From: Pseudomonadota bacterium
GTDB taxonomy: Bacteria > Pseudomonadota > Alphaproteobacteria > UBA828 > JAPUJA01
Assembly (NCBI GenBank): GCA_027296525.1
Contig: JAPUJA010000272.1
Span: 1 to 26,282, forward strand
Direction: 5' to 3'
Length of the DNA: 26,282 nucleotides
Part shown: in pieces, positions 1,825 through 26,282 of the stretch
Layout: each line of letters starts with the position of its first letter
Numbering within the stretch: the stretch's first letter is position 1
Translations under genes and position numbers: made by a program
Notes under the pieces: generated by a model
Told to the model about the DNA's origin: nothing
The model's database searches: none
Seen by the model: only the letters and a program-made list of their open reading frames with translations

Positions 1825-1826
1825 AA

Positions 1827-1846: not shown

Positions 1847-1855
1847 CCGCCGCAC

Positions 1856-1874: not shown

Positions 1875-2182
1875 TTTTTCAGCTATTCCCTCTAACAGAC
1901 TAGATAGGCTAAGTTTTCGCCAATCGTTCCGCCCGAAACCCGGCTCCGGGAAGGGCGCGTCGAGTCGGTGGATACGCGCCTGGACGACGCCTCGGGAGAT
2001 GCCGGTCCGGTTTGGCGCAAGAACGCTGCGGCGTCCGCTCGGTCGAGCGAGATCCGTGACGGGGGCCGGACAAATCTTGAGGCGATGGATGGACAAAGCT
2101 CTGGCGCGACGGTAGTTATCTGATCGGGGCGCATGAGAGGGTGTGGAAGCGCCGCTTCGAAAGGGTGGGGAAACATACACAA

Positions 2183-3370: not shown

Positions 3371-3627
3371 CCCCGGACGCCTGCCGCGTTGGCGCGTGCG
3401 TCGATTGCCGGCCCCCTCGAATTGGAAGAATAGGGGCAGCCTGGGGAAGAGGACGAGCGTTCCATCGGATAGCAGGCGTCACGCGGGGACAGGCGACGGC
3501 GAAGGCGGCGTCTTGACGGTCGCCAATTTGCCGCGATGGGGGGATAATCCCATCGTCGAGGCGCCCGAGAAGCGGTTGCCGGGAGGCGCCAAGACCGAGC
3601 CAGCAAGACGCGCCGACAACATCGCTA

Positions 3628-5751
3628 ATGACTGAGTTCTTTCAACCCGTTCTCGACACGATCGCCCAATATCCCGAGTGGGCCGGCCTGATCATCTTCC
3701 TCATGGCCGCGATCGAAACCATCGTCGGGATCGGCTATCTCATCCCCGGCACCTGGCTCATGCTGAGCTTTGGTCTTCTGGTCGGTACGGGCGGAATTCG
3801 TTTCGACATCGCCGTGATCGCGCTCGCCTCAGGCGGCATCGTCGGCGATGCCGCCGGCTACTGGATCGGCAAGCATTACGGCCGCCGGCTGTTCGGGACC
3901 CGCTTTTTCCGGAAGCATCAGGCCCTCGTCACCAGGTCGGAAAGATTCTTCGCCCGGCATGGCGGCAAGGCCGTGTTCCTCGCGCGCATGCTCGGGCCGG
4001 TGCGACCCCTCGTGCCGTTCTTCGCTGGGATGGCGCGGATGAACATCGTGAAGTTCACGATTTGCAACATTACTTCCGCGATCGTCGCCGCTGTCGCTCA
4101 CCTTGTGCCCGGCATGGCCGTGGGTCTCGGCTTGCAGTTCACCGGGGCAATGACGTGGCGGCTCGTCGTGCTGATCGTCCTCGTTACCTTGCTCGCCTGG
4201 CTCTTCTACGAAGTCGCGCGTCGGGGCATGCGGTTCGCCAATACGACCGGGCCGCGCCTTGCCGAACGTCTGACCGCATGGGGGCACGCGCCTGAACGCC
4301 GCGCGAGCGGCCTCGGGTCCTTTGCCGCAGCCGCGATCCTTCCCTTCGTCGATCCACGCCACCGCGCCGCCGTCGCGATGGCCTTTCTCGGCATCGTGGC
4401 GCTCTCCTGCTTCATCGGCGTGACGCTTCTGCTCCGCGAGGTCATCGACGGCAATCCCATCAATCACGCCAACCGCGCCGTACTCGAATTCCTGAACGGC
4501 TTGCACACCCCGTGGGCCGATCGGGTGATGAGCATTTTCCTCGGGCTGGGAAGCGCCTCGGTGCTCGTGCCGCTCGTCGCCGCCGTTCTGGTCATCCTCG
4601 CGGCGCGCCGGGATTGGATGATCGGAGGTTACTGGACGCTCACCGCCCTGTTCGCCTACGCGACCGCCACCGTGCTCGAGATGGTGGTTCCGGCGGGGGC
4701 ATCCGGTGCGGCCGGATATGATGCCTTCCCGAGCAGCCATGCGGCCATCTGGGTGGTCTTGTTGGGCTATCTCGCGATTCTCTGTCTGCCCGTCGTGAGG
4801 GGCCGCCGCTGGCAGCTCACGATTCTTTTCGCGGCGTCGGCGCTCGTGGCCGTGATCAGTTTTTCGCAACTCTATTTCGGTGTCCTGGTGATCTCGAGCC
4901 TTGCCGGGGGTCTCTTGCTGGGTCTCGGTTGGCTCGCCGTTCTGACGGTCGTCACCCGGCGCCGGATACCCACTCCTCTTCCGCCCTGGGGGCGTACCCT
5001 GGGCCTGACCTCCTTCGCCGTGCTGATCGTGGCCGGCAGCCTGAGCTTTGCCACGAACGGAGACGAGCCACTGATCAGCCGGGCGCGCTCCGAGACGCAC
5101 CAATTGGTCACGCTCGACGCCTGGCAACGCCATGCCTGGCGCGAGCTTCCCGCCTACCGGAGCGATTTCGTCGGCGCACTCGAGGAGCCCCTCAACGTCC
5201 AGCTCTCAGGCGATCCGGCGTTTTTCCGCGCCGCGATGGCGATGGCCGGATGGCGCGACGCGCCGGTCTGGGACACCATCCAGACCGTGATCTTTCTGAC
5301 CGGCGCGGGCGGGGACGGCCCCGACGGAGGTCCGGTTCTTCCCCGATTTTGGGACGGCCAGCGCGAAACCTTGGTGCTCGTCAAGCCCGATGCGCGGGGG
5401 CGGCTCGTCCTGCGCCTGTGGGACAATGGACAGCGGATGGTCCCGAGCGGCGAATTCCTTCTGATCGGGACGGTCGAGCGCGAGCTGGAGCGCCGTCCGT
5501 TGGTTTTCGGCACGATTCGCCTGCCGCCGCGCGCCGGTTCCTTCTCGGAAGCCGCACGTCTTCTCGCCGTCGATGCAGGCGACGCCGAGCTTCTCAAGCG
5601 GGTGGAGACGGAGCTTCCCGATGGCGCGAAAGCCGGTCTCGCATCCTGGGACGGAACGACCGCCATCATCCGCTTGGAACCCGGCTGGAAAGAAATTCGC
5701 GCGCCCGAGCCGTTCCATTTACGCTGGACGGCATTTGCGCCCCATGGCTAA
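3628..5751 (+). CDS. DedA / PAP2-like / LssY C-terminal multidomain membrane protein
   Basis: N-terminal DedA motifs (IETIVGIGYLIPG; FFARHGGKAVFLARMLGPVRPLVPFFAGMARM), central membrane segment with FPSSH (PAP2 C2-like), soluble C-terminal domain starting EEPLNVQLSG (LssY_C-like). Confidence 0.85.
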   Translation: MTEFFQPVLDTIAQYPEWAGLIIFLMAAIETIVGIGYLIPGTWLMLSFGLLVGTGGIRFDIAVIALASGGIVGDAAGYWIGKHYGRRLFGTRFFRKHQALVTRSERFFARHGGKAVFLARMLGPVRPLVPFFAGMARMNIVKFTICNITSAIVAAVAHLVPGMAVGLGLQFTGAMTWRLVVLIVLVTLLAWLFYEVARRGMRFANTTGPRLAERLTAWGHAPERRASGLGSFAAAAILPFVDPRHRAAVAMAFLGIVALSCFIGVTLLLREVIDGNPINHANRAVLEFLNGLHTPWADRVMSIFLGLGSASVLVPLVAAVLVILAARRDWMIGGYWTLTALFAYATATVLEMVVPAGASGAAGYDAFPSSHAAIWVVLLGYLAILCLPVVRGRRWQLTILFAASALVAVISFSQLYFGVLVISSLAGGLLLGLGWLAVLTVVTRRRIPTPLPPWGRTLGLTSFAVLIVAGSLSFATNGDEPLISRARSETHQLVTLDAWQRHAWRELPAYRSDFVGALEEPLNVQLSGDPAFFRAAMAMAGWRDAPVWDTIQTVIFLTGAGGDGPDGGPVLPRFWDGQRETLVLVKPDARGRLVLRLWDNGQRMVPSGEFLLIGTVERELERRPLVFGTIRLPPRAGSFSEAARLLAVDAGDAELLKRVETELPDGAKAGLASWDGTTAIIRLEPGWKEIRAPEPFHLRWTAFAPHG

Positions 5752-12100: not shown

Positions 12101-12631
12101 GTCGCCGAGGCACGGCAAGAAGCCGGCGTCGCGACCCACGTGCCCCGTGTGGCGTGGACGCCCCAGATCAATATCGGCGCCTCGGTCCTGATCCCGGAGG
12201 ACTACGTCTCCGATCTCGGCATCCGCCTTGGGCTCTATCGGCGCATCGCCCAGCTCGAAGCGCGCGACGAGATCGACGCCTTCGCCGCCGAGCTCGCGGA
12301 TCGCTTCGGTCCGGTGCCCGACGAGGTCAATCATCTGCTCGAGATCGTGGCGATCAAGCATCTCTGCCGTGAGGCCGGGGTCGAAAAGATCGAGGCCGGG
12401 CCCAAGGGCGCCTCACTCACCTTCCGCGACAAGGTGTTTGCCGCACCCGAACGGCTCGTCGGCTTCATCGCCGATCCCGTCAATCGGATGAATCTGCGCC
12501 CGGACTCGACTCTCGTGGCGCGCCGGACCTGGGGCAGCGCAGCCGAACGGCTCGAAGGCGCGAGCAACCTGCTGGGCGAGCTCGTCGCGCTCGCGCGTTC
12601 CGACGAGGCCCAGGACGTCGGGGTGGCCTAG
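9104..12631 (+). CDS. mfd: Transcription-repair coupling factor Mfd
   Basis: UvrB-like N-terminus (FPAWDCQPYDRISP), RID (DLVVHMEHGIGRF), GDVGFGKT, DEEQHFG, QLYQLRGRIGR, DLDIRGAGNLLG; GTG start overlaps sdhE TGA (GTGA). Confidence 0.97.
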   Translation: MISLEDLFGEPGTRLISSAPTGCDAFIIGRISRALAPVTVLHVARDDVRLARMADALQFFAPEAGRLTFPAWDCQPYDRISPRADIASRRLETLARLAQPEANGDGSSRVVLTTINALLQRVPPRELIAGKLLTVSPGSTFSRERLIDYLLSNGYSSAGTVVEAGEYAVRGGLIDLFPPGASDPIRLDFFGETIESMRRFDAATQRSKESVDELRLFPVSELFTDPETRARFKTGYHELFGAVMGDDPLYESISAGRKYPGMEHWLPLFHERLETLFDYLPDALITLDHLVEDSRDARIATIVDHYEARLEAPEAAVGGTVPAYNPVPPERLYLTAREWDERMAARAVAQFFPFARPPVEGERIFDAGGKQAGDFSAERAEAGGVLFDAVARAIENHRRQGKHVVIAAHSAGTLDRLRKLLSGHGLPDPPQVETWAEVAAMAEPSLALALLPLEHGFETAEFIVIGEQDILGDRLIRRPTRKRRSEDFLASASEISKGDLVVHMEHGIGRFDGLAILEVAGARHDCLRLLYDGGDRLFLPAENIEVLSRYGSEDQPVVLDKLGGASWQARTSRLKRRIRDMADELVRIAAERTLKPAPRLAPQDGLYEEFCARFPHTETEDQAQAIDETLSDLASGRPMDRLICGDVGFGKTEVALRAAFVTAMAGKQIAVVVPTTLLCRQHFETFRARFTGLPVNIAPLSRLVPAKRTAEVKAGLATGEIDIVIGTHALLSKQMSFHDLGLLVIDEEQHFGVTHKERLKQLKSNVHVLAMTATPIPRTLQLALSGVREMSVIATPPVDRLAVRTYILPFDAVAIRDALLREHYRSGQSFYVCPRISDIERVAQRVRRLVPEVKVATAHGRMPARALEDVMTAYYDGAYDVLVVTAIIESGLDIPAANTMIIHRADMFGLAQLYQLRGRIGRAKVRAYAYLTLEPERSITAAAEKRLGVLHKLDSLGAGFNLASYDLDIRGAGNLLGAEQSGHIREVGIELYQHLIEQAVAEARQEAGVATHVPRVAWTPQINIGASVLIPEDYVSDLGIRLGLYRRIAQLEARDEIDAFAAELADRFGPVPDEVNHLLEIVAIKHLCREAGVEKIEAGPKGASLTFRDKVFAAPERLVGFIADPVNRMNLRPDSTLVARRTWGSAAERLEGASNLLGELVALARSDEAQDVGVA

Positions 12632-14346
12632 GAGCAACCTCGGCCGAGATGCGCGTAGGCCGGCAGGGTGGTCAGGCGATCGTCCTCGAGCGCGCCTCCG
12701 ACGGTGAAGTGGTACAGGCTCTGCCACTCCTCCGACCCGAGGCCGAGGAGACGATGGACGAGATCGTCGAAATAGCAGCCGATGCCGGTCGCGCGGACAC
12801 CCGCCGCCTCGGCCTGAAGATAGAGAGCCTGGCCGATCAAGCCGCACTCCCAGAACAGGCGACGGTAGGCCCAGGAACCCTCCTCTTCGAGAGTGCGGGC
12901 AAAATCGGCCACCATCGCCAGGCTGAAGGCGCCGTCGGCGGCGATCTCCTGGAGGCAACTTGCTTGGGCCGCCGCCGGGCGGAAATCGCCGAGCGCGAGC
13001 GCGTAGAGCGGCAGGGACGCGAGCTCCACATCGAGCCAGGCGAACTTCCGATGGCAGGCGGCGCGCAGCGCCGAGCGCCGATCCCCATCGCGCATCAGCA
13101 TGTAGAGGCCCGCGGGCAGATCCTCGACCCGGTGGACGAACAGGGCGAGCTGCACCCGGGCCGGGAAGCCGACGCTTTGCCAGGGCGGCCTCGCGGGGTC
13201 GGGCAGGGCGGCCGCCATCATGGCGACGAAATTCGAGCGCGCCAGGCCGGTTTGCCCATCCAGGGCGACGGCGCTCCGGCGTCGGCGGATGAGCCGCGCC
13301 GCGCTTAGGCCGTCCGATCGGGCGGGGGTGGGCGCGGCGGCCAACGGGGGCGCAGCCGTGAGCGGCGTCGAGTCGCCGGTCCGGGGTTTGGTCGCGGCGC
13401 GGGCGACGACCGGGATCTCCGACCAGTCGACGTGGCTCTGGCTCAGCCGGTTGGCCTGCCCGCGCCACGCGCCCTGGCGCACGACGCCGTCGAGCGGCAA
13501 CGGAACGCTTTCGCTGCCTGTGGGATTCGTGAGGACAGCCGCCAGCAGCTCGGGCGCTTCCGGCTCGGCCTGGGCGAAATCGCCCTGCCGTTCGAGGCCG
13601 AGCAGGCCTGAAATGTCGGCGTCCGAAACATGCGAAAGCAACCACACCCGCCAGCCGAGGGCCGCCGCCGCGAAACTCAACGCGCCCAGGGCATGGCCCA
13701 CATCGTGCTGGCAGTAGCGATAGGCCCGCTGGCCGTATTTCCAGGCCTCCCGCCAATGGACCGAGCTGAGGCCCGCGAGGAAGGCCAGCGCCGGAGGATC
13801 GCCTGAGAGCGCGCTCCAGGCATCGGCGCCGAGCCGCGCGCGCTCCTCGAGGGCGTGCTCGCGGGGCGCGTAGTGGTAGACGCCGGGCCGATCGGAGATG
13901 CCGGGCAAAGCCGGAATGAGCAGATAGCCTTCGGTCGGATGGAGGTTGCCGCTCGAGGGATTGCCGCGCAGAGCCCATTTCGTGCCCTGAAAGCTCTTCC
14001 ATGCCGTGATCCCGAGGCTGAGCTCGAGAAATAGCCCGAGCGTCTGGCGCGTCAGGGGGCGCGGGCGGATGGCGCCGGGTCTGACGAGGGCGTCGAAGAG
14101 CGGCGTGTCGTCATCCGCGGCCAGGGGAAGCGGCACCTCGTGCGCGCCGGCGAATCGGCGAAACGGCTCCGGCTGATTCGCCCAGTCGAGATAACCGGGG
14201 CCTTCCGCATAATGACCGAGGGCATGCTTGCTGAGCCGGTGATAACGCCACACCGCCGCAAGGGGCGCCGATCGCCCGGGGCGTCGCTCGCTGGCCTTCG
14301 AGGCCGTGCTCAAGGACTCGCTCGCCGCCGGTATCCGGTCTTGCAA
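12628..14346 (-). CDS. SagB/ThcOx-type nitroreductase-superfamily flavoprotein with two nitroreductase domains
   Basis: YHRLSKH...YLDWANQPEPFRRF, LRGNPSSGNLHPTEGY, WKYGQRAYRYCQHDVGH, second domain LIRRRRSA...YRRLFWECGLIGQALYLQAEAAGVRATGIGCYFDD. Start (TTG 14346) uncertain, no clear SD. Confidence 0.85.
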   Translation of the reverse strand: MQDRIPAASESLSTASKASERRPGRSAPLAAVWRYHRLSKHALGHYAEGPGYLDWANQPEPFRRFAGAHEVPLPLAADDDTPLFDALVRPGAIRPRPLTRQTLGLFLELSLGITAWKSFQGTKWALRGNPSSGNLHPTEGYLLIPALPGISDRPGVYHYAPREHALEERARLGADAWSALSGDPPALAFLAGLSSVHWREAWKYGQRAYRYCQHDVGHALGALSFAAAALGWRVWLLSHVSDADISGLLGLERQGDFAQAEPEAPELLAAVLTNPTGSESVPLPLDGVVRQGAWRGQANRLSQSHVDWSEIPVVARAATKPRTGDSTPLTAAPPLAAAPTPARSDGLSAARLIRRRRSAVALDGQTGLARSNFVAMMAAALPDPARPPWQSVGFPARVQLALFVHRVEDLPAGLYMLMRDGDRRSALRAACHRKFAWLDVELASLPLYALALGDFRPAAAQASCLQEIAADGAFSLAMVADFARTLEEEGSWAYRRLFWECGLIGQALYLQAEAAGVRATGIGCYFDDLVHRLLGLGSEEWQSLYHFTVGGALEDDRLTTLPAYAHLGRGCS

Positions 14347-15014: not shown

Positions 15015-16181
15015 ATGGAACCGAGAAGCATAACTATCCTGGGTTCGACGGGATCGGTCGGCTGTAACACGATCGATCTGATCGAACGTAATCCGGCGGC
15101 TTATCGGATCGAAGCCCTGACGGCCAATCAAAACGTCGAGGTTCTCGCCAAGCAGGCGAGGCGTCTTAAGCCGCGCTTGGCGGTGATCACCGAGGAATCG
15201 AAATACGAAGCGCTCAAGGACGCTCTTTGGGGAACCAACATCGCCGTGGCCTCGGGGCGTGCCGCGTTGCGCGAGGCGGCCGAGATGCCCGCCGATTGGG
15301 TCATGGCGGCGATCGTCGGCGCCGCCGGGCTCGAACCCACACTCGCCGCGATATCTCGGGGCGTAATCGTCGCTCTGGCCAACAAGGAATGCCTTGCCTG
15401 CGCCGGCGAGCTCGTGATGCAGGAAGTACGCGCGAACGGCACCACCCTGCTGCCCGTGGATTCCGAGCACAATGCGATTTTTCAGGTGTTCGAGTTCGAG
15501 CGCCACGAATCGGTGGAGCGGCTGATCCTGACCGCTTCGGGTGGACCTTTCCGCTCGATGGACCGGGATCAGATGGCGTCGGTCACGGCCGAACAGGCGG
15601 TCGCCCATCCGAACTGGGATATGGGCGCGAAGATCTCCGTCGATTCGGCCACGATGATGAACAAGGGCCTCGAAATGATCGAGGCCTATCATTTGTTCCC
15701 GGTCGACGCCGAGCAGATCGAGGTGGTGATCCACCCGCAATCGGTGGTTCACAGCCTGGTCGCTTATATCGACGGATCGGTCCTCGCACAGCTCGGTTCG
15801 CCGGACATGCGCACCCCCATCGCCTACACCCTCGGATGGCCCAAGCGCATCCCCGCGCCGGCGCCCAAGCTCGATCTGGCGGCGCTTGGAAGCCTGACCT
15901 TCGAGCGGCCCGATGCCGAGCGTTTTCCGGCCCTCAGGCTCGCGCACGCCGCCCTCGAAACGGGCGGTGGGGCGCCGACCATACTCAACGCCGCCAACGA
16001 GATCGCCGTGCATGGCTTTCTGAAGGGCGAGATCGGCTTTCTCCAGATCACCGAGGTCGTCGAACACACTCTCGGCAAGCTGAACAACGGGAGCTTGGCA
16101 TCATTGGACGACGTGATCGCGTTGGACCAGGACGCCCGCGCGAAGGCGCAGGCCTATATGGCCAACGGAATGTCGCGATAG
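15015..16181 (+). CDS. dxr: 1-deoxy-D-xylulose 5-phosphate reductoisomerase
   Basis: ILGSTGSVG, ALANKE, PVDSEHNAI, LTASGGPFR, HPNWDMGAKISVDSATMMNKGLE, LNAANEIAV. Confidence 0.97.
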   Translation: MEPRSITILGSTGSVGCNTIDLIERNPAAYRIEALTANQNVEVLAKQARRLKPRLAVITEESKYEALKDALWGTNIAVASGRAALREAAEMPADWVMAAIVGAAGLEPTLAAISRGVIVALANKECLACAGELVMQEVRANGTTLLPVDSEHNAIFQVFEFERHESVERLILTASGGPFRSMDRDQMASVTAEQAVAHPNWDMGAKISVDSATMMNKGLEMIEAYHLFPVDAEQIEVVIHPQSVVHSLVAYIDGSVLAQLGSPDMRTPIAYTLGWPKRIPAPAPKLDLAALGSLTFERPDAERFPALRLAHAALETGGGAPTILNAANEIAVHGFLKGEIGFLQITEVVEHTLGKLNNGSLASLDDVIALDQDARAKAQAYMANGMSR

Positions 16182-16221: not shown

Positions 16222-17148
16222 ATGACAACCACCGAGCAAAACGAAGCCCTGAGGGCGGGGGAACCGCTTGCGGGGGTCGTGCGCGGGGGCGAATCGTCGG
16301 GCGCCGGCGGACGCGCGCAGCTCGATTCCGACGCCGTCCGGCGTCTCATCGTCGAGAACACCGAGAACTTTCCGGTCGGCTCCTTTCTCATTCCGCCCGA
16401 TTGTCGGCCCCATGTCTACGCCTTCTACCAATATGCGCGGAACGCCGACGATATTGCTGATTCGGCGACACTTTCTGTGGAGGAGAAGCTTCGCCGCCTG
16501 AACCCGGCCCACGACGCGCTGGGGGTCGATGAAGGGGCGCTTCCCGATTGGGCGGTGTCCTACCACCGCAGCCTGATCGAAACCGGCAACACGCCTCGGC
16601 ACGGGCGCGACCTCCTCTCCGCCTTCATCCAGGACGTCACCAAGCTCCGTTACCGCGATTGGGACGACCTGGTGGACTATTGCATGCGTTCGGCCGCATC
16701 CGTCGGGCGCGTGATGATGGACATCCACGGCGAAACCGATGCCGATTTCGAGGGCTCGGACGCGCTTTGCAACGCGCTCCAGGTGCTCAATCACCTGCAG
16801 GACTGCAAGAAGGATTATCTCAACCTGGATCGCGTCTATCTGCCGGAACCCTGGCTCCAGGAAGAAGGCGGCTCGGTGGAGGATCTCGCCTTGCCTTCGG
16901 CGACGCCCGCGGTGCGCCGGGTGATCGAGCGTTGTCTGGACGGGACCGACGATTTGCTCGCCCGCGCCCAGACCATGCCGCCGTCCGTCCGCCGCCGGGG
17001 GCTTCGTCTCGAGAGCGCGCTCATCCTCGCGCTGGCCAAGAAATTATCTGGGCGCCTGCGCCGTGAGGACCCGCTGGCCCGGCGCGTCAAGGTGTCGAAG
17101 GCCGGTTGGATTCTGTGCGGCGTGAAGGGCGCGCTCACCTCATGGTAG
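16222..17148 (+). CDS. hpnC: Squalene synthase subunit HpnC (hydroxysqualene synthase)
   Basis: ENFPVGSFL N-terminal signature, YARNADDIAD, LLSAFIQDVTKLRYRDWDDLVDYCMRSAASVGR, LQVLNHLQD...DRVYLP. Confidence 0.9.
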   Translation: MTTTEQNEALRAGEPLAGVVRGGESSGAGGRAQLDSDAVRRLIVENTENFPVGSFLIPPDCRPHVYAFYQYARNADDIADSATLSVEEKLRRLNPAHDALGVDEGALPDWAVSYHRSLIETGNTPRHGRDLLSAFIQDVTKLRYRDWDDLVDYCMRSAASVGRVMMDIHGETDADFEGSDALCNALQVLNHLQDCKKDYLNLDRVYLPEPWLQEEGGSVEDLALPSATPAVRRVIERCLDGTDDLLARAQTMPPSVRRRGLRLESALILALAKKLSGRLRREDPLARRVKVSKAGWILCGVKGALTSW

Positions 17149-18011
17149 CGGCGCTCGAACCGCGCACAGACGACGATCCCAAGCGCTATGTCGCCAAGGT
17201 CGTACGGGCCTCAGGCAGTTCCTTCGCCAGGCCGATGCTGGTGCTGCCGCGAGCCAAACGCGAGTCGATGCTCGCGCTCTATGCCTTTTGCCGCGAGACG
17301 GACGACGTCGTCGACGAAATCGAAGATCCCGAGGAGGCCTTACGCCAACTCGACGCTTGGCGTGCGGAGCTCGATGCCCTTTATCGCGGGGTGCCGAGCC
17401 ATCCGGTGACCCGCGCTCTGGCCGGACCGGTCGCCGCCCTGGATCTCCCGAAACGCTACTTTACCGAGATTCTCAATGGCTTCGACATGGATCGGTCCGG
17501 CGCCATGTGTCGCCCGGACATGGAGACTCTCGAGCGCTACTGTTTTTGCGTGGCGGGCTGCGTGGGTCTCATCTCGGTCGAGATTTTTGGCTACCAGGAT
17601 CGGCGCATCCCTGAATTCGCGGAGCAGCTGGGCCACGCCTTTCAGCTCACCAACATCCTGCGCGATATCGAGGAGGACGCCCGGCGCGGCCGGATCTATC
17701 TGCCGATCGAGCTTCTGCAACGCCACGGGCTGGCGGAGCTTCCGCCCGAGGAGCTGTTGGCGGCCGCGGCTTTGCCAGAGGTGTGCGCCGAGCTCGGCGC
17801 GCTTGCGCGTCGGCGCTTCGCCGCGGCGGCCACGGCGCTCGCGCCTTCCGAAATCCGTTCGATGCGCCCGGCCCTCCTGATGCGGGCGATCTACGAAACC
17901 TACCTCGATCGCATGGAGGCAAGCGGCTGGCGCCTGAGCGGCGACGAGGTTCGCCTGGGCCGGGCGAGCAAGCTCTGGCTGCTGCTGCGCGCCTTCATCA
18001 CCACCATCTGA
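17142..18011 (+). CDS. hpnD: Presqualene diphosphate synthase HpnD
   Basis: SGSSF...LYAFCRETDDVVD, YCFCVAGCVG, LGHAFQLTNILRDIEEDARRGRIYLP; ATG 17142 overlaps the hpnC end (TAG 17146-17148). Confidence 0.9.
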   Translation: MVAALEPRTDDDPKRYVAKVVRASGSSFARPMLVLPRAKRESMLALYAFCRETDDVVDEIEDPEEALRQLDAWRAELDALYRGVPSHPVTRALAGPVAALDLPKRYFTEILNGFDMDRSGAMCRPDMETLERYCFCVAGCVGLISVEIFGYQDRRIPEFAEQLGHAFQLTNILRDIEEDARRGRIYLPIELLQRHGLAELPPEELLAAAALPEVCAELGALARRRFAAAATALAPSEIRSMRPALLMRAIYETYLDRMEASGWRLSGDEVRLGRASKLWLLLRAFITTI

Positions 18012-18105: not shown

Positions 18106-18870
18106 TCAGACCTTATATTCGTAACGCTCGCCCGGCGCGCGCTCGCAATCGGGCGGGTAACTCCTTCGCTTCGCGGCGAAATATCCGACCCGGTGATCGC
18201 CTTCGGACAAGCGATTGTAGCTCGCGTAGATCGCCCGCCTCGCCCATCGACTCCGATTCGGGGCCGAACGGTGGGGAACAAACGAATCGAAGAACACGAC
18301 ATCGCCCGGCTCCATCGGACAGGGAACGAACGTTATATCCTTGATTTCCTCGTCCCCGAGGGGGTGCCACATCTTGCCGATGAGGCCCCGGTCATGGCAG
18401 CCGGGGGCGATTTCGAGACAGCCGTTCGCCTCTATCGAGAGGTCGACGGCGATGGCCGCGGTGATGAAAAGGCTCCCGTAATCCTCCCAGCCGGCTTGCA
18501 TGTCCTGGTGCGGCTCGAACCCCCGGCTCTGCGGCAGCTTGAAATTGATCTTCTCCTTGAACAGGACCGCCTGCTCGCCGAAGAGCTCGGAAACAGACCC
18601 CAAGAGACGATCTCCACTCAACAGGGAGTCGAACTCCCGATGGTAAGGAACGAAGTTCTCGATGCGATCAAGCACCCGCTTGTTCGGGTCATCCACCGAC
18701 GCCTCGCGGTAGACCATGTGCCTGTTCGGAACTTCGGGGAGATGTTCGAGCTCATCGACCCAGAGACGGATTTCCTCCGCTTCGTCCGCATCGAACACGC
18801 CGGTCATGACCAAGTAGCCGTCACGCCGGAAAGCCATCAACTCTTCTTCGGTCAGGATGGTTCGCCGCAT
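18106..18870 (-). CDS. PhyH-family Fe(II)/2-oxoglutarate dioxygenase, PhnY (2-aminoethylphosphonate dioxygenase)-like
   Basis: HxD (EPHQD) and distal His (FVPHRS) triad; GEQAVLFKEKINFK and YNRLSEG...YF..KR..YPPDCER segments resemble the PhnY subfamily as I recall it. ATG 18870 follows GGAGGG; ATG 18897 is an alternative. Confidence 0.85.
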   Translation of the reverse strand: MRRTILTEEELMAFRRDGYLVMTGVFDADEAEEIRLWVDELEHLPEVPNRHMVYREASVDDPNKRVLDRIENFVPYHREFDSLLSGDRLLGSVSELFGEQAVLFKEKINFKLPQSRGFEPHQDMQAGWEDYGSLFITAAIAVDLSIEANGCLEIAPGCHDRGLIGKMWHPLGDEEIKDITFVPCPMEPGDVVFFDSFVPHRSAPNRSRWARRAIYASYNRLSEGDHRVGYFAAKRRSYPPDCERAPGERYEYKV

Positions 18871-18919
18871 CTGGTCCCTCCGCAGATTCCAGATCATGAG
18901 ACACCGCCGCTGGCAGAAC

Positions 18920-18947
18920 CTTTAACAGAAACCCGATCTCTTTAACA
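18920..18947. repeat. 8-bp direct repeat CTTTAACA x2 at 20-bp period upstream of the dioxygenase
   Basis: Copies at 18920-18927 and 18940-18947 in the 175-nt gap between the cytidylyltransferase stop and the dioxygenase start. Confidence 0.6.
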
Positions 18948-19045
18948 CCGGCAAAAGCCGGATGCCTCGCCTAGAGGGCTCTCGAAATGGCCTGGATGCG
19001 AGCGAAGGTGAGCCGTCAGAGGGCAAGTCATGCATTCACAACCCG

Positions 19046-19795
19046 TTACCCGCCCTCGCCGATCAGGCGCGGGAGTATTTCTTCGCGGGCGCGGACGACG
19101 TCCTCGGGAAAGTCTATCTCCGTCCAAGGGAGGTCCGTTATGTCTTCGAAACCGAATGTCCCGGCCGGCGAGTGAAGCAGCAACCGGCGCAAGGCTTCTT
19201 CGTAGCCCTCGTCGCGCTGTCCCGCCTCGATGAGCGCCGCGTTGGCCGTCGAGAGCGCTACCGCCATGGGCGGGGCCAACCGGAAGAACCCCACCGATTC
19301 GCCCACGAAATCGAAGGGCGCCTCCACGCGCCGGCTGAATTCCACCAGTTGTCCGCCTCGAACGGCGAGCTTCATGGGCTCGTCTCCGGCTTCGAAACTC
19401 CGGTCGAGCAGGAAGCAATTGCGATGGCGCGTCCGTTTCAGGGATTCGAGCATGCGCCGGTCGTACAAAACGTCCGCGTCCATCAGGAGAATGTCGTCGC
19501 CGCATGTCAGCGCTTGAGCCGCCGCCTGAAGGGTGACGACGCTGCCCGCCTGGTAATCGGGATTGTGCGCGAGGATGACACGGGCGCCGGCGTCGAGACG
19601 CTCAAGCTCTGCGGCGATGAGATCCGCCTTGTAACCGACGGCGACAACGACATCGTGAACGGCGATTCGCCGCAACTCCGTCAGGTGACGCTCGAGCAGC
19701 GTGCGCCCGCCGAAAGAGAGGAGCGCCTTCGGCATGCCGCCGAATTCTCCCGAGAGCCGGTTTCCCACCCCGGCGGCCATGATAAGAGCCATCAT
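19046..19795 (-). CDS. Phosphocholine/phosphonate cytidylyltransferase-like NTP transferase (LicC/PntC/IPCT type)
   Basis: ALIMAAGVGNRL...PKALL nucleotidyltransferase motif, MDADVLY DxD-type motif, GESVGFF, C-terminal PWTEIDFPED; single domain without sugar-phosphate transferase hexapeptide repeats. Confidence 0.88.
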   Translation of the reverse strand: MMALIMAAGVGNRLSGEFGGMPKALLSFGGRTLLERHLTELRRIAVHDVVVAVGYKADLIAAELERLDAGARVILAHNPDYQAGSVVTLQAAAQALTCGDDILLMDADVLYDRRMLESLKRTRHRNCFLLDRSFEAGDEPMKLAVRGGQLVEFSRRVEAPFDFVGESVGFFRLAPPMAVALSTANAALIEAGQRDEGYEEALRRLLLHSPAGTFGFEDITDLPWTEIDFPEDVVRAREEILPRLIGEGG

Positions 19796-19901
19796 CGAAG
19801 CGTGTTATTCCTCCGCCCCAGGTCCTGACGGGCAAGGCCTTCTTTCACTTTGTCGAGCTAATCGCTAACATAACCGCCAAAAAGATCGTAAGGGCGAATC
19901 T

Positions 19902-20570
19902 GTGACGAACGAAGGGAAAAGCGGCGCGTCCGACCCTCCCGCAGAGCCGAATGGTGCCATTCTTTGGGATCAGCGGCTCGCGCGCCTGATGGTGCGCCCG
20001 CTCATCGACAGCTCGGTGACACCGAATCAGATCACGACCGTGCGCCTTCTGACGGGTCTCGCGGCATGCGCGCTCATCGCCTGGGGCGGCGATCGAAGCT
20101 GGCTCAACTGGGGAGCGGCCCTCTTCATCTTCTCGAACCTGCTCGATCACGCCGACGGCGAGCTCGCGCGCCTCACCGGAAAATCGAGCCCGTTCGGACA
20201 TTACTTCGATCTCGCCAGTGACGCTCTCATTCACGCGCTGTTCTTCAGCGCCCTGGGGTTCGCGGTCGCCGGCGGCCGGATCGGCGATTGGGCCATCGTC
20301 TTGGGAACAGTGGCGACCTGCGGCATCGGCACGCTCTTCTGGGTCTTTTCTCACCGAATGAAACTCTATGGCAAAGCCGAGCTCCAGCCGCGCTGGGCGG
20401 GTTTCGAGCTCGAGGACATCATGTATCTGCTGGCGCCGGTCGTTTGGCTCGGCTGGGAACTTCCGCTCTTGGTGATCGCCGGGGTGATGTCGCCGATCGC
20501 CGCGCTCGCTCTGTTGTGGCTGCATCGCCGGACGCTGTTCTCGGCCTCGCGCCGGGAGGGGCTATCGTGA
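19902..20570 (+). CDS. CDP-alcohol phosphotransferase family membrane protein
   Basis: VTPNQITT plus an intact DxxDGxxAR...GxxxDxxxD motif (LDHADGELARLTGKSSPFGHYFDLASD); several hydrophobic segments; GTG start. Confidence 0.92.
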   Translation: MTNEGKSGASDPPAEPNGAILWDQRLARLMVRPLIDSSVTPNQITTVRLLTGLAACALIAWGGDRSWLNWGAALFIFSNLLDHADGELARLTGKSSPFGHYFDLASDALIHALFFSALGFAVAGGRIGDWAIVLGTVATCGIGTLFWVFSHRMKLYGKAELQPRWAGFELEDIMYLLAPVVWLGWELPLLVIAGVMSPIAALALLWLHRRTLFSASRREGLS

Positions 20571-21553
20571 CGACCCTGGTGACCGGGGCCTCGGGCTTCG
20601 TTGGATCGGCGGTCGCCCGCCGAGTGCTTGCCGCCGGCCACCGGGTGCGTGTTCTCCTTCGCCCCGAGAGCGACCGGCGCAATCTCGAGGGCCTCGAGGT
20701 CGAAGTCGTGCACGGCGACCTGCTGGACCCGGATTCGCTCAAGCGGGCGGTAAAGGGGTGCGAGACGGTGTTTCACGTCGCCGCCGACTACCGTCTCTGG
20801 GTGCCGAAGCCCGAGAAGATGTACGCCGCAAACGTGCAGGGCAGCGTCGATCTTGCTCGCGCCGCAGCTGACGCGGGGGTCACGCGGATCGTCTATACGA
20901 GCAGCGTGGCGACGCTCGGACTCTCGCGCAACGGCACACCGTCCGACGAAGAGACACCATCGTGCCTCGAGGACATGATCGGCCATTACAAGCGCTCCAA
21001 ATTTCTCGCCGAGGCGGAGATGCGTCGTCTCGTGCGGAAGGAGGGGCTGCCGATCGTCATCGTCAACCCGTCGACGCCCGTAGGTCCGCGCGACGTGAAA
21101 CCGACGCCGACGGGCCGTCTCGTCCTCGAGGCCGCGGCCGGACGCATGCCGGCCTATGTCGATACCGGGCTCAACCTGGTCCATGTGGACGACGTGGCGG
21201 AGGGCCACCTGCTCGCGCTCGAACGCGGTCGAGTGGGCGAACGCTACGTGCTCGGCGGGACCAACATGAGCTTGCGTGAAATCCTTGCGGAAATTGCGGA
21301 TATCGCCGGCATCACGCCGCCCAAAATCCGTCTCTCGACCGGCGTCGTGCTTCCTATCGCCTACATTGCCGAAGGGATCGCGCGCCTCTCGGGACGCGAA
21401 CCGCGAGTCACGGTGGACGGCGTGCGCATGGCACGCAAGAAGATGTACTACTCCGCCGGCAAGGCGGCCCGCGAATTGGGTTTGACGGCGCGGCCCGTGC
21501 GCGAAGCCCTGGCGGACGCGGTCGCCTGGTTTCGCGACTCCGGCTATTGCTAA
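20567..21553 (+). CDS. hpnA: Hopanoid-associated NAD(P)-dependent epimerase/dehydratase HpnA (extended SDR)
   Basis: VTGASGFVG, VFHVAADYRLWVP, YKRSK (YxxxK), VNPSTPVGPRDVKPTPTG, MPAYVDTGLNLVHVDDVAEGH; GTG 20567 after GGGAGGGG, overlapping the upstream TGA. Confidence 0.9.
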   Translation: MTTLVTGASGFVGSAVARRVLAAGHRVRVLLRPESDRRNLEGLEVEVVHGDLLDPDSLKRAVKGCETVFHVAADYRLWVPKPEKMYAANVQGSVDLARAAADAGVTRIVYTSSVATLGLSRNGTPSDEETPSCLEDMIGHYKRSKFLAEAEMRRLVRKEGLPIVIVNPSTPVGPRDVKPTPTGRLVLEAAAGRMPAYVDTGLNLVHVDDVAEGHLLALERGRVGERYVLGGTNMSLREILAEIADIAGITPPKIRLSTGVVLPIAYIAEGIARLSGREPRVTVDGVRMARKKMYYSAGKAARELGLTARPVREALADAVAWFRDSGYC

Positions 21554-21725
21554 AGAACGTCCGGCCAGGTCCGCGACGACCGGCGTTCCCGCCGCCCTTC
21601 CGGTTGCATTTTTATCCCGAACCCCCAACACTGCGGCTTCGCTGGCGGTGCACGGCCCTTCGAAGGCGATAGGCGCCGGTTGGAATGCCTGGATATCATC
21701 CCAAAGGGGCCCGAGCCGGGATCCG

Positions 21726-22655
21726 ATGCGTTACATTTCGATCCTCGCCGTGGTTTTGTCGATCTGCCTCGGCCCGATGAGTGGGGGGCTTCGGGCGGGG
21801 ACGGCTTTGCCCGCGCCCGTTGCCGAACAGCTGCAGGCGGCCGCCGCGCGGGCCAGCCGGATGAGCCACGAAACGGCCTTCGGAGAGGCGGGGATTCGCC
21901 GCGCCCGGGCGGAAATGAGCACCGTCGTGATCAGCGCCATCGCGGTTCATCCCGAAGCGACCTACGCCATCGTCCACGAAGCGGTACGCTTGACACCCTC
22001 CTTGGCGCCGGCGGTCGTCGAGTCGGCGAGTGTCGCCTATCCGGGATACGCCGCACAGATTCACGGCGCGGCCGAGGGTGTTCCATCCTCGTTTTTTGCC
22101 CAGGCGACGACCTTGGAACCGGACCACGCCGCCGCGAGCTCGCGGGAGAGCGCGCCGTTCGAGCGGCCGGGCTTCTTCGGCATCAGCGAACTCTATGTTG
22201 GGGCACTGACCCATGACACCGGCGTGTTCGGCCGTTCGGAGGAAGACAGCGGTCCGGACATTGATCTTGGCGTCCGCTTCGCGGCGCTTCGCGGCGAGTT
22301 CTGGGATCTGATCGCCGCGCCGCGTCCCCATCTCGGCCTGCATGTGAACACGCAAGGAGACACCAGTCAGCTGTTTACCGGACTGACCTGGACCTTCGAG
22401 CTCGGTTACGGCGTCTTCGTCGGGGCCGATTTCGGCCTCGCCGTGCATGACGGCGAGCTCAGAACGAGCGACGACTCGACGAAGGAGCTGGGCCTCAGGG
22501 TCTTGTTCCGCGAGGCCGCCGAGATCGGCTTTCGCATCACGGACCGGAACTCCGTCTCGGTCGTCCTCGACCATATTTCCAACGGGGGGCTCGCCGATGA
22601 GAACGAGGGCCTTGATAATTTTGGCCTGCGTTACAGCTACATCTTCGGTGGCTGA
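21726..22655 (+). CDS. PagL-like lipid A deacylase / acyloxyacyl hydrolase beta-barrel with N-terminal helical repeat extension
   Basis: Signal peptide MRYISILAVVLSICLG..., PRPHLG...NTQGDTSQ...GLTW, LGLRVLFRE, DHISNGGLADENEGLD (His, Ser+2, acidic residue +14 as in the PagL triad), aromatic last strand LRYSYIF. Confidence 0.8.
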   Translation: MRYISILAVVLSICLGPMSGGLRAGTALPAPVAEQLQAAAARASRMSHETAFGEAGIRRARAEMSTVVISAIAVHPEATYAIVHEAVRLTPSLAPAVVESASVAYPGYAAQIHGAAEGVPSSFFAQATTLEPDHAAASSRESAPFERPGFFGISELYVGALTHDTGVFGRSEEDSGPDIDLGVRFAALRGEFWDLIAAPRPHLGLHVNTQGDTSQLFTGLTWTFELGYGVFVGADFGLAVHDGELRTSDDSTKELGLRVLFREAAEIGFRITDRNSVSVVLDHISNGGLADENEGLDNFGLRYSYIFGG

Positions 22656-22819: not shown

Positions 22820-24739
22820 TTGCCTGAGACGCCATTACTGGATCGCGTAAAGCTCCCGTTGGACATGCGCGATATGACGCTCAACGAGCTGAAACAGCTC
22901 GCGGGCGAACTCCGGGAGGAGACGGTCGACGCCGTGTCCAACACCGGGGGACATCTCGGTGCCGGGCTGGGCGTCGTCGAGCTCACGGTCGCGTTGCACC
23001 ACGTCTTCAACACGCCCGAGGACCGCCTCATTTGGGACGTCGGCCACCAGGCCTATCCCCACAAGATCCTGACGGGCCGGCGCGACCGAATCCGGACCGT
23101 CCGCCAGCCCGGAGGTCTCTACGGCTTTACGAAGCGCTCGGAGAGCGAATATGACCCCTTCGGCGCGGCGCATTCCTCGACCTCGATCTCGGCGGGTCTC
23201 GGCATGGCGGTGGCCCGCGATCTTTCCGGCGGCAAGTGCCATGTCATCGCGGTCATCGGTGACGGCGCGATGTCGGCGGGCATGGCGTACGAGGCGATGA
23301 ACAACGCCGGATCGATGGACACCCGACTCATCGTCGTCCTCAATGACAACAAGATGTCCATCGCGCCCTCACTCGGCGCGTTGAACGCCTATCTGTCCCG
23401 CCTGTTGTCGTCGCATTCGTTCCGTTCCTTCCGGGACAAGGCGCGGGAAGTCGCCAGCAAGCTTCCACGCGCACTCGAAACGGCGGCCAAGCGCGCCGAG
23501 GAGTATGCGCGCGGCATGGCCGTGGGCGGTACGCTGTTCGAGGAACTCGGATTCTTTTATATCGGTCCGATCGATGGCCACAATTTGGACCATCTCTTGC
23601 CCATCCTGAAGAACGTCCGCGATGACGAAACCACGCCGGGCCCGGTGTTGATCCACGTGGTCACCCAGAAGGGGCACGGCTATCCGCCCGCCGAGAAGGC
23701 GGCGGACAAATTTCACGGCGTCAGCAAGTTTGACGTGGTCACGGGCGAACAAGCGAAGAAGAAAGGCAAGGCGCCGTCATACACCTCCGTCTTTGCGAAG
23801 AGTCTGATTGCCGAAGCCGAGAAGGACGAGAAGATCGTCGCCCTGACCGCCGCGATGCCGGATGGCACGGGTATCGACAAGTTCATCGAGCGTTTTCCCG
23901 ATCGCGGGTTCGACGTCGGGATCGCGGAGCAGCACGGCGTGACCTTCGCCGCCGGTCTTGCGGCCCAGGGATTTAAGCCGTTTGCCACGATCTACTCGAC
24001 CTTCTTGCAACGCGCCTACGATCAAGTCGTGCATGACGTCGCGATCCAGCGCCTTCCCGTCCGCTTCGCGATCGACCGGGCCGGCTTGGTGGGAGCCGAC
24101 GGGCCGACACATGCCGGCTCTTACGACATCACTTATTTGTCGACATTGCCCGGCTTCGTCGTGATGGCTGCGGCGGATGAAGGCGAACTCGTGCACATGA
24201 TCAGAACGGCGGTTGCGATCGACGATCGCCCTTCGGCTTTTCGTTATCCGCGCGGTGAAGGGATCGGCGTCCCGCTGCCGGAGGAACCCAAAGCCTTGGA
24301 GATCGGTAAGGGGCGCATCCTGCGCGAAGGCACGGCGCTCGCGATTCTCTCCTTCGGGGCACGTCTGCATGAGTGTTTCAAGGCGGCGGACGAGCTCGCG
24401 GCGCGGGGCTTCTCGGCGAGCGTCGCGGATGCACGCTTCGCCAAACCTCTGGACGAAGACCTCATTCGCCGGCTCGTTCGTGAACATGAGGTCCTGATTA
24501 CGATCGAAGAGGGCGCGATCGGAGGCTTCAGCGCCCATGTGTTGCACTTCCTGGCAAACGCCGGATTGCTGGATCAGGGCCTTAAGTTTCGCCCGATGAT
24601 CCTGCCCGACCGCTTCATCGTGCACGGCACGCCGGCCGGGATGTACGAGGATGCCGGTCTGACCGCCTCCGATATCGTCAGCACAGCCCTTTCCGCCCTC
24701 GGGGTCGAAGGCAAAGCCGAACTGGCCCGCGGGGCCTGA
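22820..24739 (+). CDS. dxs: 1-deoxy-D-xylulose-5-phosphate synthase
   Basis: [47 protein letters not shown]...NDN (TPP motif), [33 protein letters not shown]; TTG start after GAGGGGGG. Confidence 0.97.
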
Positions 24740-24750: not shown

Positions 24751-26282
24751 ATGCTAGAGAAGACGAGCGAGGCCACGATCGTGCCTACGGCGGGGGCCAC
24801 GAACGAGATTGACGACGCGACGTTGGCCCAGGTCATCGACGAGGCGCGCGAATCCTATCGCGCCGAGCAGCGCCCCGGCGGATATTGGCTCTATGAGCTC
24901 GAGGCGGATGTCACGATCTCCGCGGAATACATCATGCTTCTCCACTACCTGGACGAGCGAGACCCGCCGCTTGAAGAGAAGATCGCGAAATACATCCGCA
25001 CGATCCAGCATGACGACGGGGGCTGGCCGCTCTTCTGGAGCGGCCCTGCGGACATCAGCGCGACCGTAAAGGGCTATTTCGCGCTCAAGCTTGCGGGCGA
25101 CGATCCCAACGCGCCCCATATGAAGCGGGCGCGCGATTTGGTTCTCGCCATGGGCGGCGCGGCCAAGAGCAACGTCTTCACCCGCACCACCCTTGCTCTC
25201 TTCGGTCAGGTGCCATGGCGTGCCGTGCCGACCATGCCGGTCGAGATCATGCTCTTGCCCAAATGGTTCCCGTTTCATCTCGACAAGGTGTCCTATTGGT
25301 CGCGCACCGTCATCGTGCCTCTTCTCATCATGATGGCCAAACGCCAACCGGCCAGGAATCCGACCAACGCCGGCATACGCGAGCTTTTCGTCACACCGCC
25401 TGAAGCGGAGCGCGCCTATTTTCGCGACGCGAACGGCGTTCTCGGCCACCTCTTCCGCGGCGTCGATAAGGTCCTGAAAACCACCGAGCCTATCTTTCCC
25501 AGGAAACTGCGCGAGAAATCGATAAGGCGCGGGCTCGAATGGATTCTCCTGCGCCTCAACGGCGAAGACGGCCTCGGAGGAATCTTCCCCGCCATGGCGA
25601 ACAGCCTGATGGCCCTCGACGCCCTGGGATATCCGCGGGAGGATCCGACACGCCAGACGATCAAGCGCTCGATCGACCTCTTGCTGAGCGATGAAAAGGA
25701 AGGGGGGCTGCGTTACTGTCAACCCTGCCTCTCCCCGATCTGGGATACCTGCCTCGGCGGCCTCGCCATGCTCGAGGCGGGCGAGCCGGGGGATAGCGCC
25801 ACCATGGAGAAGGCCTCCGGCTGGCTGCTCGAACGCGAGATCCTCGACGTCGTCGGCGACTGGGCGTCGCGGCGACCCGAAATCAAGCCGGGCGGTTGGG
25901 CCTTCCAGTTCCGTAACGATTACTATCCGGACGTCGACGACACGGCGGTGATCGGCATGCTCTTGCATCGGGCCGATCCGGAACGCTACGGCGAAGCGAT
26001 CAAGCGCACGGCCCGCTGGATCGAAGGAATGCAGTGCAAGAGCGGCGGTTGGGGCGCGTTCGATGCGGACAACGAACATTATTATCTCAATTACATCCCA
26101 TTCGCCGATCACGGTGCATTGCTCGACCCGCCGGAGATCGACGTCACCGGTCGCTGTGTCAGCTTCCTGTCACAAATAGGCTATTCGCGCGATCATCCGG
26201 CGATCCGAAAAGGCATCGAATTCATCAAACGCGACCAGGAGCCCGACGGTTCGTGGTACGGCCGCTGGGGCACGAACTACAT
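24751..26282 (+). CDS. shc: Squalene-hopene cyclase (5' part; runs off the window end)
   Basis: Translated by hand from ATG 24751 with no stop to the end: ELEADVTISAEY, QHDDGGW, QPCLSPIWDT, GGWAFQFRNDYYPDVDDTAV (DxDD at 25930-25941), MQCKSGGWGAFD, QEPDGSWYGRWGTNY. Absent from the ORF track; GTG 24781 is an alternative start. Confidence 0.96.
   Translation, partial: MLEKTSEATIVPTAGATNEIDDATLAQVIDEARESYRAEQRPGGYWLYELEADVTISAEYIMLLHYLDERDPPLEEKIAKYIRTIQHDDGGWPLFWSGPADISATVKGYFALKLAGDDPNAPHMKRARDLVLAMGGAAKSNVFTRTTLALFGQVPWRAVPTMPVEIMLLPKWFPFHLDKVSYWSRTVIVPLLIMMAKRQPARNPTNAGIRELFVTPPEAERAYFRDANGVLGHLFRGVDKVLKTTEPIFPRKLREKSIRRGLEWILLRLNGEDGLGGIFPAMANSLMALDALGYPREDPTRQTIKRSIDLLLSDEKEGGLRYCQPCLSPIWDTCLGGLAMLEAGEPGDSATMEKASGWLLEREILDVVGDWASRRPEIKPGGWAFQFRNDYYPDVDDTAVIGMLLHRADPERYGEAIKRTARWIEGMQCKSGGWGAFDADNEHYYLNYIPFADHGALLDPPEIDVTGRCVSFLSQIGYSRDHPAIRKGIEFIKRDQEPDGSWYGRWGTNY

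Follow-up and report, generated by a model that had tools for sequence, protein, structure and literature searches.

The dioxygenase gene analysed here belongs to a distinct clade of PhnY*-type proteins which, judged by sequence comparison, are on balance probably biosynthetic alpha-hydroxylases that would tailor a head group of the 2-aminoethylphosphonate (AEP) type and would not take part in C-P cleavage. What is known of phosphonate alpha-hydroxylases concerns mainly the reaction that opens oxidative C-P cleavage. The present clade appears to build a head group with this type of hydroxylation and is almost confined to producers of hopanoids, the sterol-like lipids of bacteria.

The locus

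The window, by which we mean the whole stretch of 26,282 nucleotides that was analysed, is the entire contig C193 of an assembly that comprises 2.34 Mb in 368 contigs and is 79% complete. The genes for the dioxygenase, a nucleotidyltransferase, and a CDP-alcohol transferase are flanked by hpnCD on one side and by hpnA-dxs-shc on the other, in the following order:

15015-16181, plus strand: dxr, with three DXP reductoisomerase Pfam domains
16222-17148, plus strand: hpnC-like squalene synthase (Pfam SQS_PSY, 1e-51; TIGR03464, 249.4 bits against a cut-off of 250.45)
17106-18011, plus strand: hpnD, presqualene diphosphate synthase (TIGR03465, 309 bits against a cut-off of 278.6)
18106-18870, minus strand: PhyH-fold Fe(II)/2OG dioxygenase of 254 residues, from a separate clade related to PhnY* with the signature HQDxQAGW
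19046-19795, minus strand: stand-alone nucleotidyltransferase of the MobA/LicC type, PntC-like (Pfam NTP_transf_3, 8.1e-15)
19902-20570, plus strand: CDP-alcohol phosphotransferase (Pfam CDP-OH_P_transf, 5.9e-15)
20567-21553, plus strand: HpnA, hopanoid-associated SDR "sugar epimerase" (TIGR03466, 513 bits against a cut-off of 367.65)
21648-22655, plus strand: PagL-like outer-membrane protein (Pfam PagL, 4.3e-16)
22820-24739, plus strand: dxs (Pfam DXP_synthase_N, 3e-117)
24751-26280, plus strand: squalene-hopene cyclase (SHC; SQHop_cyclase_N and _C; TIGR01507, 601.6 bits, above the cut-off)

The dioxygenase gene is convergent with hpnD, and the nucleotidyltransferase gene lies about 175 nt upstream of it on the same strand. 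The CDP-alcohol transferase gene is divergent from the nucleotidyltransferase gene and encodes the full catalytic motif D(x)2DG(x)2AR(x)8G(x)3D(x)3D at residue 82. Its stop codon overlaps the GTG start of hpnA (GTGA), and by this overlap the two genes are, as read from the DNA, translationally coupled. The squalene-hopene cyclase reading frame is cut by the contig end. The remaining reading frames of the window encode an amidase, a D-Ala-D-Ala carboxypeptidase, a DedA/PAP2/LssY fusion, a DUF502 protein, RecG, an SdhE-like protein, Mfd, a SagB-like dehydrogenase, and a pterin-4a-carbinolamine dehydratase.

The dioxygenase

On the minus strand the reading frame is open, without stops, from 18106 to 18897. 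The ATG at 18870 is the start favoured by the gene callers and by 30 aligned homologues, and a GGAGG lies 6 nt upstream of it; the gene is therefore taken as 18106-18870. Rfam, promoter, and terminator scans of the region gave nothing informative. The protein matches the PhyH domain (PF05721; E 4.9e-25, 89.5 bits against a cut-off of 22, residues 23-222 of the long form), and its AlphaFold2 model has a mean pLDDT of 95.2. Alignment with solved PhyH-fold hydroxylases identifies H121-Q-D123 and H200 as the iron triad and R211 as the 2OG-binding arginine (numbering of the 254-residue protein). In the 30 homologues H121, H200, and R211 are invariant and D123 is nearly so, which bears out the intact HxD...H triad noted in the preliminary description of this DNA. 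The gene encodes a genuine Fe(II)/2OG oxygenase related to the phosphonate hydroxylases.

The closest structural neighbours of the model found with Foldseek are proline hydroxylase H11, GriE, and EctD, with TM-scores of 0.72-0.75 at 21-26% identity. These enzymes hydroxylate free small zwitterions (proline, leucine, and ectoine, respectively) and not lipids. Human phytanoyl-CoA hydroxylase, a PhyH protein that does act on a lipid, ranks only fiftieth. By sequence, the similarity to solved structures reaches E-values of 1e-9 at best. The alignment of the 30 homologues also contains many invariant arginine and lysine residues. TmpA, which had been proposed as a comparator together with PhnY, did not serve as one: no TmpA chain appeared among the PDB sequence matches of the dioxygenase. 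TmpA has a TauD/BBOX-type fold, unlike the PhyH fold, and is therefore a poor standard for this protein.

Placement in the PhnY*-type family

The best NCBIfam model for the dioxygenase is that of the PhnY* methylphosphonate hydroxylases (NF052437), which matches over almost the full length with 160.9 bits (E 3.8e-47), while the next family, EctD, scores 36.8 bits. The earlier label "PhnY-like" thus holds at the level of the wider family. However, 160.9 bits are well below the equivalog cut-off of 500 bits, and the protein is therefore not a member of PhnY* proper.

An exhaustive search of 1.84 billion cluster representatives revealed relatives of the dioxygenase, at 39-45% identity, that are joined to phosphonate enzymes. 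Three of them (P0139, P0165, and P0256) carry a PhnZ-type HD domain, and that of P0139 shares 42% identity with a PhnZ-family protein (TIGR03276). In a further one, P0248, the fusion partner is a phosphonopyruvate decarboxylase with 37% identity to the Ppd of the source genome. Both kinds of fusion link the wider family to phosphonate chemistry, in the catabolic as well as in the biosynthetic direction.

In a FastTree tree of the domain (196 rows, midpoint root, moderate support) the window protein falls into a clade of its own, together with all of the 82 close relatives that were taken from genomes (93 rows, support 88). A clade of 43 rows that contains all three HD fusions stands apart from it, and so does the clade of the Ppd fusion. 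The tree places the dioxygenase outside the clade of the PhnZ-fused dioxygenases. The three clades also differ in the segment after the HxD motif, which reads HQDxQAGW in the window clade, HQDAPAF in the HD-fused clade, and HRDGRFWW in the Ppd-fused clade. The loop after HQD (MQAGWEDY in the window protein) had been suggested to mark a different substrate class. The clade-specific loops lend this some support, but the loop is not peculiar to the gene: QAGW is invariant across the window clade in the alignment of the 30 homologues, and HQDxQAGW is therefore a signature of the clade. Given the score far under the PhnY* cut-off and the separate clade, the specificity of PhnY* cannot be transferred to the window protein. 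A distant PhyH relative (L100/L101, 144 bits) was considered as a PhnY candidate and dropped because no PhnZ is found nearby; it was kept only as an outgroup, with a very long branch.

Within the clade tree, the window gene pairs with the gene of locus L010 (SH-aLRT 94), and genes from hopanoid contexts and genes from PepM contexts are interleaved, so that one shared function is likely.

Gene context in related genomes

One genome per species was scanned, which yielded 538 relatives of the dioxygenase; the best 80 loci were searched with seeds for neighbouring genes. Cultured carriers, such as Skermanella aerolata KACC 11604 and Elongatibacter sediminis, are among the relatives. Hopanoid genes were found (HpnD in 26 loci, HpnC in 22, SHC in 19), together with those for the CDP-alcohol transferase (24) and the NTP transferase (22) and those for the PepM-nucleotidyltransferase fusion (PepM-Ntf; 19), Ppd (16), and AEP aminotransferase (AEPT; 15). 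De novo clustering of the neighbours with Pfam adds HpnG, HpnH, HpnE, HpnN, an HpnL-like LPG_synthase_TM protein, GT2, and IspH. Hopanoid synthesis, which accompanies the clade more strongly than anything else, had gone unmentioned in the preliminary description.

Three arrangements recur. In the alphaproteobacterial one, hpnCD-PhyH-GT2-hpnCD-hpnE-shc-hpnG are accompanied on the other strand by hpnH, ispH, the CDP-alcohol transferase gene, and hpnA/NTP transferase. The gammaproteobacterial one reads hpnCD-shc-hpnG-PhyH-hpnN, and in three loci (L026, L037, and L040) the co-directional array extends into hpnA, (the CDP-alcohol transferase), the NTP transferase, PepM-Ntf, Ppd, and AEPT. The third consists of pure PepM clusters, and relatives of HpnA (50-70% identity) also occur in PepM clusters without hpnC, hpnD, or shc. 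In the Nostocales HT-58-2 locus the order is CDP-alcohol transferase, PhyH, NTP transferase, PepM-Ntf, Ppd, and aminotransferase, with hpnI/J/H-like genes around them; the window proteins are 44% (CDP-alcohol transferase), 56% (dioxygenase), and 52% (NTP transferase) identical to their Nostocales counterparts. In Rokubacteria the dioxygenase gene has unrelated neighbours.

The constant unit of hydroxylase, cytidylyltransferase, and CDP-alcohol transferase fits a scheme in which a head group is activated and then transferred. The family relationship together with the frequent adjacency to PepM, Ppd, and AEPT points to C1-hydroxylated 2-aminoethylphosphonate as the head group.

Phosphonate biosynthesis genes of the source genome

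The search for pepM that had been recommended gave no match to the NCBIfam PepM model in the assembly. However, a remnant is present at the start of a second contig, C268 (3.5 kb): the 37 C-terminal residues of a protein that matches residues 518-546 of the Nostocales PepM-nucleotidyltransferase fusion are encoded there, and the stop codon of this tail overlaps the start of a Ppd gene (ATGA). The Ppd gene, likewise sought on that recommendation, was found here:

C268, 155-1240: Ppd (TIGR03297, 411.6 bits against a cut-off of 312.5; 48% identical to the Nostocales Ppd)

Positions 5-1330 of C268 are collinear, at about 72% amino acid identity, with the end of a 594-residue PepM-Ntf reading frame and the adjoining Ppd gene in G004. 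Locus L010 comes from G004, a MAG listed as uncultured Hyphomicrobiales, and the hopanoid locus there shows synteny with the window (identities: HpnC 79%, Dxs 81%, SHC 72%, NTP transferase 61%, CDP-alcohol transferase 55%, PagL-like protein 51%). The tail at the very edge of C268 and its collinearity with G004 suggest that the mutase part was lost at the contig edge. An AEP aminotransferase was not found in the 79% complete assembly; G004 carries a fragment of one (354 bits) at a contig end. These C-P biosynthesis genes on C268 had escaped the preliminary description.

On C268 the Ppd gene adjoins a Wzy_C gene, and in G004 the PepM-Ntf and Ppd genes adjoin sugar-nucleotide enzymes. With glycan genes beside the pair, PepM-Ntf and Ppd of the source lineage may also, or instead, serve a phosphonoglycan.

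Search for a C-P-cleaving partner

A PhnZ-type partner was looked for in the window, in the assembly, and in the related loci. In agreement with the preliminary description, Pfam and NCBIfam scans of the main reading frames revealed no HD-domain protein, phosphonate transporter, or phn regulator in the window. The genome search for phnZ that it had proposed also found none: neither the TIGR03276 model nor six PhnZ-type seeds matched anywhere in the assembly, and the seeds had no match within 10 kb of the dioxygenase gene in any of the 80 relatives. Because the assembly is only 79% complete, the absence of PhnZ from the organism itself is not proven. PhnZ seeds were taken from 12 TIGR03276 loci retrieved from 400 genomes of the phylum. 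None of these 12 loci has a PhyH-type gene beside PhnZ (FAD oxidoreductases, aldehyde dehydrogenases, and others are found there), and they were therefore rejected as a source of reference PhnY sequences and used for PhnZ seeds only.

Since the gene product shares its wider family with PhnY* and the assembly is incomplete, it could be argued that it is a PhnY* of catabolism and that the fifth of the genome missing from the assembly holds its PhnZ partner. We consider this highly improbable because no PhnZ-type gene was found in the assembly or within 10 kb in any of the 80 relatives, the gene falls outside the PhnZ-fused clade, and its own neighbours are biosynthetic lipid genes without a transporter or a Pho-type regulator. 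The idea that the hydroxylation is biosynthetic tailoring and not catabolism, already put forward in the preliminary description, is supported by the comparison of gene contexts: in other genomes the trio of dioxygenase, cytidylyltransferase, and CDP-alcohol transferase lies beside PepM-Ntf, Ppd, and AEPT, and no PhnZ was found near the clade.

Co-occurrence across genomes

The clade is rare, with members in two of 400 other genomes of the phylum sample. A contingency test in this sample failed with only two positives, and a base rate from 200 genomes was used instead. The following numbers refer to 50 genomes that carry the dioxygenase; since related carriers are not independent, they are descriptive counts and not tests. 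An SHC above the cut-off is present in 49 of the 50 carriers, compared to 17 of 200 genomes in the phylum sample. The sole carrier without SHC, G014, has a dioxygenase gene almost identical to a Rokubacteria gene, and the contig is probably mis-binned in G014. The NTP-transferase subfamily is present in 47 carriers and the CDP-alcohol transferase subfamily in 44. PepM and Ppd are each found above their cut-offs in 34 carriers, and one or the other in 39.

The near-universal SHC suggests another explanation, that the dioxygenase hydroxylates the hopanoid itself and adds, for example, the extra C-31/C-30 hydroxyls of bacteriohopanepentol or -hexol. In 39 of 82 loci the gene is embedded in hpn operons, genomes that lack both PepM and Ppd still have it, and according to a survey from 2025 the genes for bacteriohopanepentol and -hexol are unknown (PMC12583986). 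If this were true, the long-sought bacteriohopanepentol/-hexol hydroxylase would have been identified. However, it is hard to see why sister clades of a hopanoid hydroxylase should be fused to PhnZ and Ppd, or why its genes should interleave in the tree whether they come from hpn operons or from pure PepM clusters. The closest solved folds act on small zwitterions, and the many invariant arginines and lysines suggest an anionic small substrate. In addition, the most constant partners are the nucleotidyltransferase and the CDP-alcohol transferase, for which a side-chain hydroxylase would have no need. We therefore regard a hopanoid-hydroxylating enzyme as improbable.

The carriers without phosphonate genes bear on a different alternative. 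PepM and Ppd are both absent from eleven of the 50, among them at least one finished chromosome (G040), and these genomes mostly keep the dioxygenase together with the NTP transferase and the CDP-alcohol transferase. Thus, a phosphonate made by the cell itself is not a necessary assumption for the head group. The dioxygenase could even act on another small head-group precursor, such as an amino alcohol, an amino acid, or a cyclitol phosphate, with the phosphonate link being mere co-residence. This would agree with the clade loop, which differs from that of the PhnZ-linked clade, and with the two transferases, neither of which matches an NCBIfam equivalog and which show a weak likeness to inositol-phosphate cytidylyltransferase/DIPP and PIP synthases. 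On the other hand, PepM or Ppd in 39 of 50 carriers compares with PepM in about 5% of bacterial genomes (PMC8942020), and the operon-like adjacency to PepM-Ntf, Ppd, and AEPT is found in several classes. Furthermore, the complete, PepM-less genomes G033 and G040 encode an AEP transaminase of the PhnW/AepZ type above the cut-off, and G033 also has Ppd, so that AEP is still in play there. A precursor unrelated to phosphonates therefore seems rather unlikely to us.

A proposed hydroxylated phosphonate head group

The explanation that we prefer remains the biosynthetic hydroxylation of an AEP-type head group. The PntC-like cytidylyltransferase, the CDP-alcohol transferase, and the hydroxylase would together build a small polar head group, for which C1-hydroxylated 2-aminoethylphosphonate is the most likely candidate. 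The hydroxylase might act on the free acid, on the CMP conjugate, or on the lipid-bound form of AEP, and the head group would be transferred to the alcohol of a membrane lipid, either diacylglycerol or a hopanoid polyol. The parts of this explanation that we infer are the identity of the substrate, the site of hydroxylation, and the lipid that accepts the head group.

A more specific version, which we put forward only tentatively, is that the trio, HpnA, the HpnL-like protein, and HpnN make and export a hopanoid that carries (1-hydroxy-)2-aminoethylphosphonate on its side-chain polyol. To our knowledge, a phosphonate-capped bacteriohopanepolyol has never been reported as a lipid class. If it exists, the "Group 1 phosphonolipid" clusters discussed below would be hopanoid-decorating clusters. 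Either a phosphonate-decorated hopanoid or a hydroxy-AEP lipid would provide the first chemistry for the most abundant predicted family of phosphonolipid clusters, give roles to orphan "hopanoid-associated" genes such as those of HpnA and the HpnL-like protein, and constitute a new class of hopanoid biomarkers and a new sink for reduced phosphorus.

Comparison with known systems

The hopanoid tie of Group 1-type clusters is barely touched in the literature. Our search for a link between hopanoids and phosphonates (or phytanoyl-CoA dioxygenases) found nothing beyond a single sentence on a "possible phosphonoterpene" of Nitrosococcus (PMC8942020), which is based on the antiSMASH label "phosphonate-terpene" (PMC7285500). 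Two recent hopanoid surveys (one of them PMC12583986) mention neither phosphonates nor such an oxygenase.

PhnY* has been described as a 2-AEP hydroxylase from marine metagenomes and as a methylphosphonate hydroxylase from Gimesia maris, in both cases in the oxidative PhnY*/PhnZ pathway (PMC6581173, PMC8316502). The window protein shares with it the PhyH fold, the HxD...H triad, and the 2OG arginine, and no curated family scores better. It differs in its score (161 versus 500 bits), its separate clade, and its loop after the HxD motif, and the window clade differs in having biosynthetic lipid genes as neighbours and no PhnZ found nearby. The likeness to proline hydroxylase H11, GriE, and EctD is limited to the fold and the metal/2OG site.

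A biosynthetic role within the family has a precedent in FzmG from fosfazinomycin biosynthesis, a PhnY* homologue that hydroxylates the alpha-carbon of a phosphonate (PMC8942020). The comparison is drawn from its description, and FzmG belongs to a natural-product pathway of Streptomyces without a lipid or hopanoid context. Head groups of 1-hydroxy-AEP are known from the sphingophosphonolipid of Bacteriovorax stolpii (as cited in PMC8942020).

The closest known counterpart is the seven-gene core of the "Group 1 phosphonolipid" or "Burkholderiales_CDP-OH" clusters (Yu et al. 2013, as cited in Li & Horsman 2022, PMC8942020). It includes a Ppm-PntC fusion, Ppd, AEPT, an alpha-KG/Fe(II) oxygenase, a second PntC, and a CDP-alcohol transferase, and a 1-hydroxy-AEP phosphonolipid has been predicted as its product, which was never isolated or characterised (PMC8942020). 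The Nostocales locus, whose oxygenase is the one with 56% identity to that of the window, matches this core gene for gene, and the likeness of the window to the core is drawn through this locus and through the description of the core, not through a Burkholderia sequence. Whereas the core is a single cluster, the source genome has the trio on C193 within the hpn locus and the PepM-Ntf tail and Ppd on C268. Like the Group 1 core, however, the window has the oxygenase, a stand-alone PntC, and the CDP-alcohol transferase together, at 18106-20570.

Proposed head-group genes of the window

The stop of the CDP-alcohol transferase gene and the GTG start of hpnA share the sequence GTGA (20567-20570 of the window), and GGGAGGGG is found immediately 5' of this overlap.

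19902-20570, CDP-alcohol transferase
20567-21553, hpnA

Relatives of HpnA with 50-70% identity are also present in PepM clusters that do not contain hpnC, hpnD, or shc, and therefore HpnA may be a component of the head-group module and not of hopanoid core synthesis. The window contains a single CDP-alcohol transferase, whereas many of the genomes carrying dioxygenase relatives have two paralogues of the window subfamily, which are located side by side or less than 3 kb apart (G028, G043, G041, G035, G033, G016, and G004).

Three further genes were annotated in the window.

3628-5751, 707-aa protein that joins DedA/VTT and LssY_C domains and also matches PAP2 weakly
12628-14346, minus strand, 572-aa protein, two stretches of SagB-type dehydrogenase with the nitroreductase fold (TIGR03605, 109 bits)
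21648-22655, PagL-like outer-membrane protein, between hpnA and dxs

The PagL-like protein shares 51% identity with its counterpart in the syntenic locus L010, and in another locus, L071, a PagL-like gene adjoins the dioxygenase gene. Obvious peptide-maturation partner genes were not seen near the SagB-type gene.

Distribution of PepM and Ppd

The Ppd gene of the same assembly, and the tail of a PepM-Ntf gene, are located on another contig.

C268 (L006), 1-3478, PepM-Ntf tail and Ppd, then two ORFs, then a convergent Wzy_C gene

The two ORFs downstream of Ppd have no Pfam match, and the Wzy_C gene is O-antigen ligase-like. In G004, the genome of L010, the genes flanking the PepM-Ntf/Ppd pair (L099) encode a GDP-mannose-dehydratase-like protein and a GFO/hexapeptide-transferase. 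A phosphonoglycan context is thus possible for the pair in both genomes. Five genomes, G033 (the genome of L039), G018, G026, G027, and G037, encode Ppd above the curated cut-off but no PepM above its own, so that the decarboxylase is present without the mutase that forms its substrate. The G033 genome is nearly complete, and in its sister genome G016 PepM directly adjoins Ppd.

The only carrier without SHC is G014, which is labelled Actinomycetota. Its dioxygenase gene (L020) is nearly identical to that of a Rokubacteria locus (L028), with branch lengths of 0.009 and 0.019, and the L020 contig has probably been mis-binned.

PhnZ-type genes and their neighbours

In the PhnZ-linked sister clade of the dioxygenase, P0230 (696 aa) combines a DUF5690 domain (E 7e-141) with a PhyH domain; DUF5690 is possibly a membrane protein with a link to phosphonates. 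Around the TIGR03276 'PhnZ' family genes of Pseudomonadota (L087-L098) no 2OG dioxygenase was found within 1.5 kb. Their context differs from that of the classic PhnY*/PhnZ pair, as the flanking genes encode FAD-dependent oxidoreductases (DAO) and aldehyde dehydrogenases.
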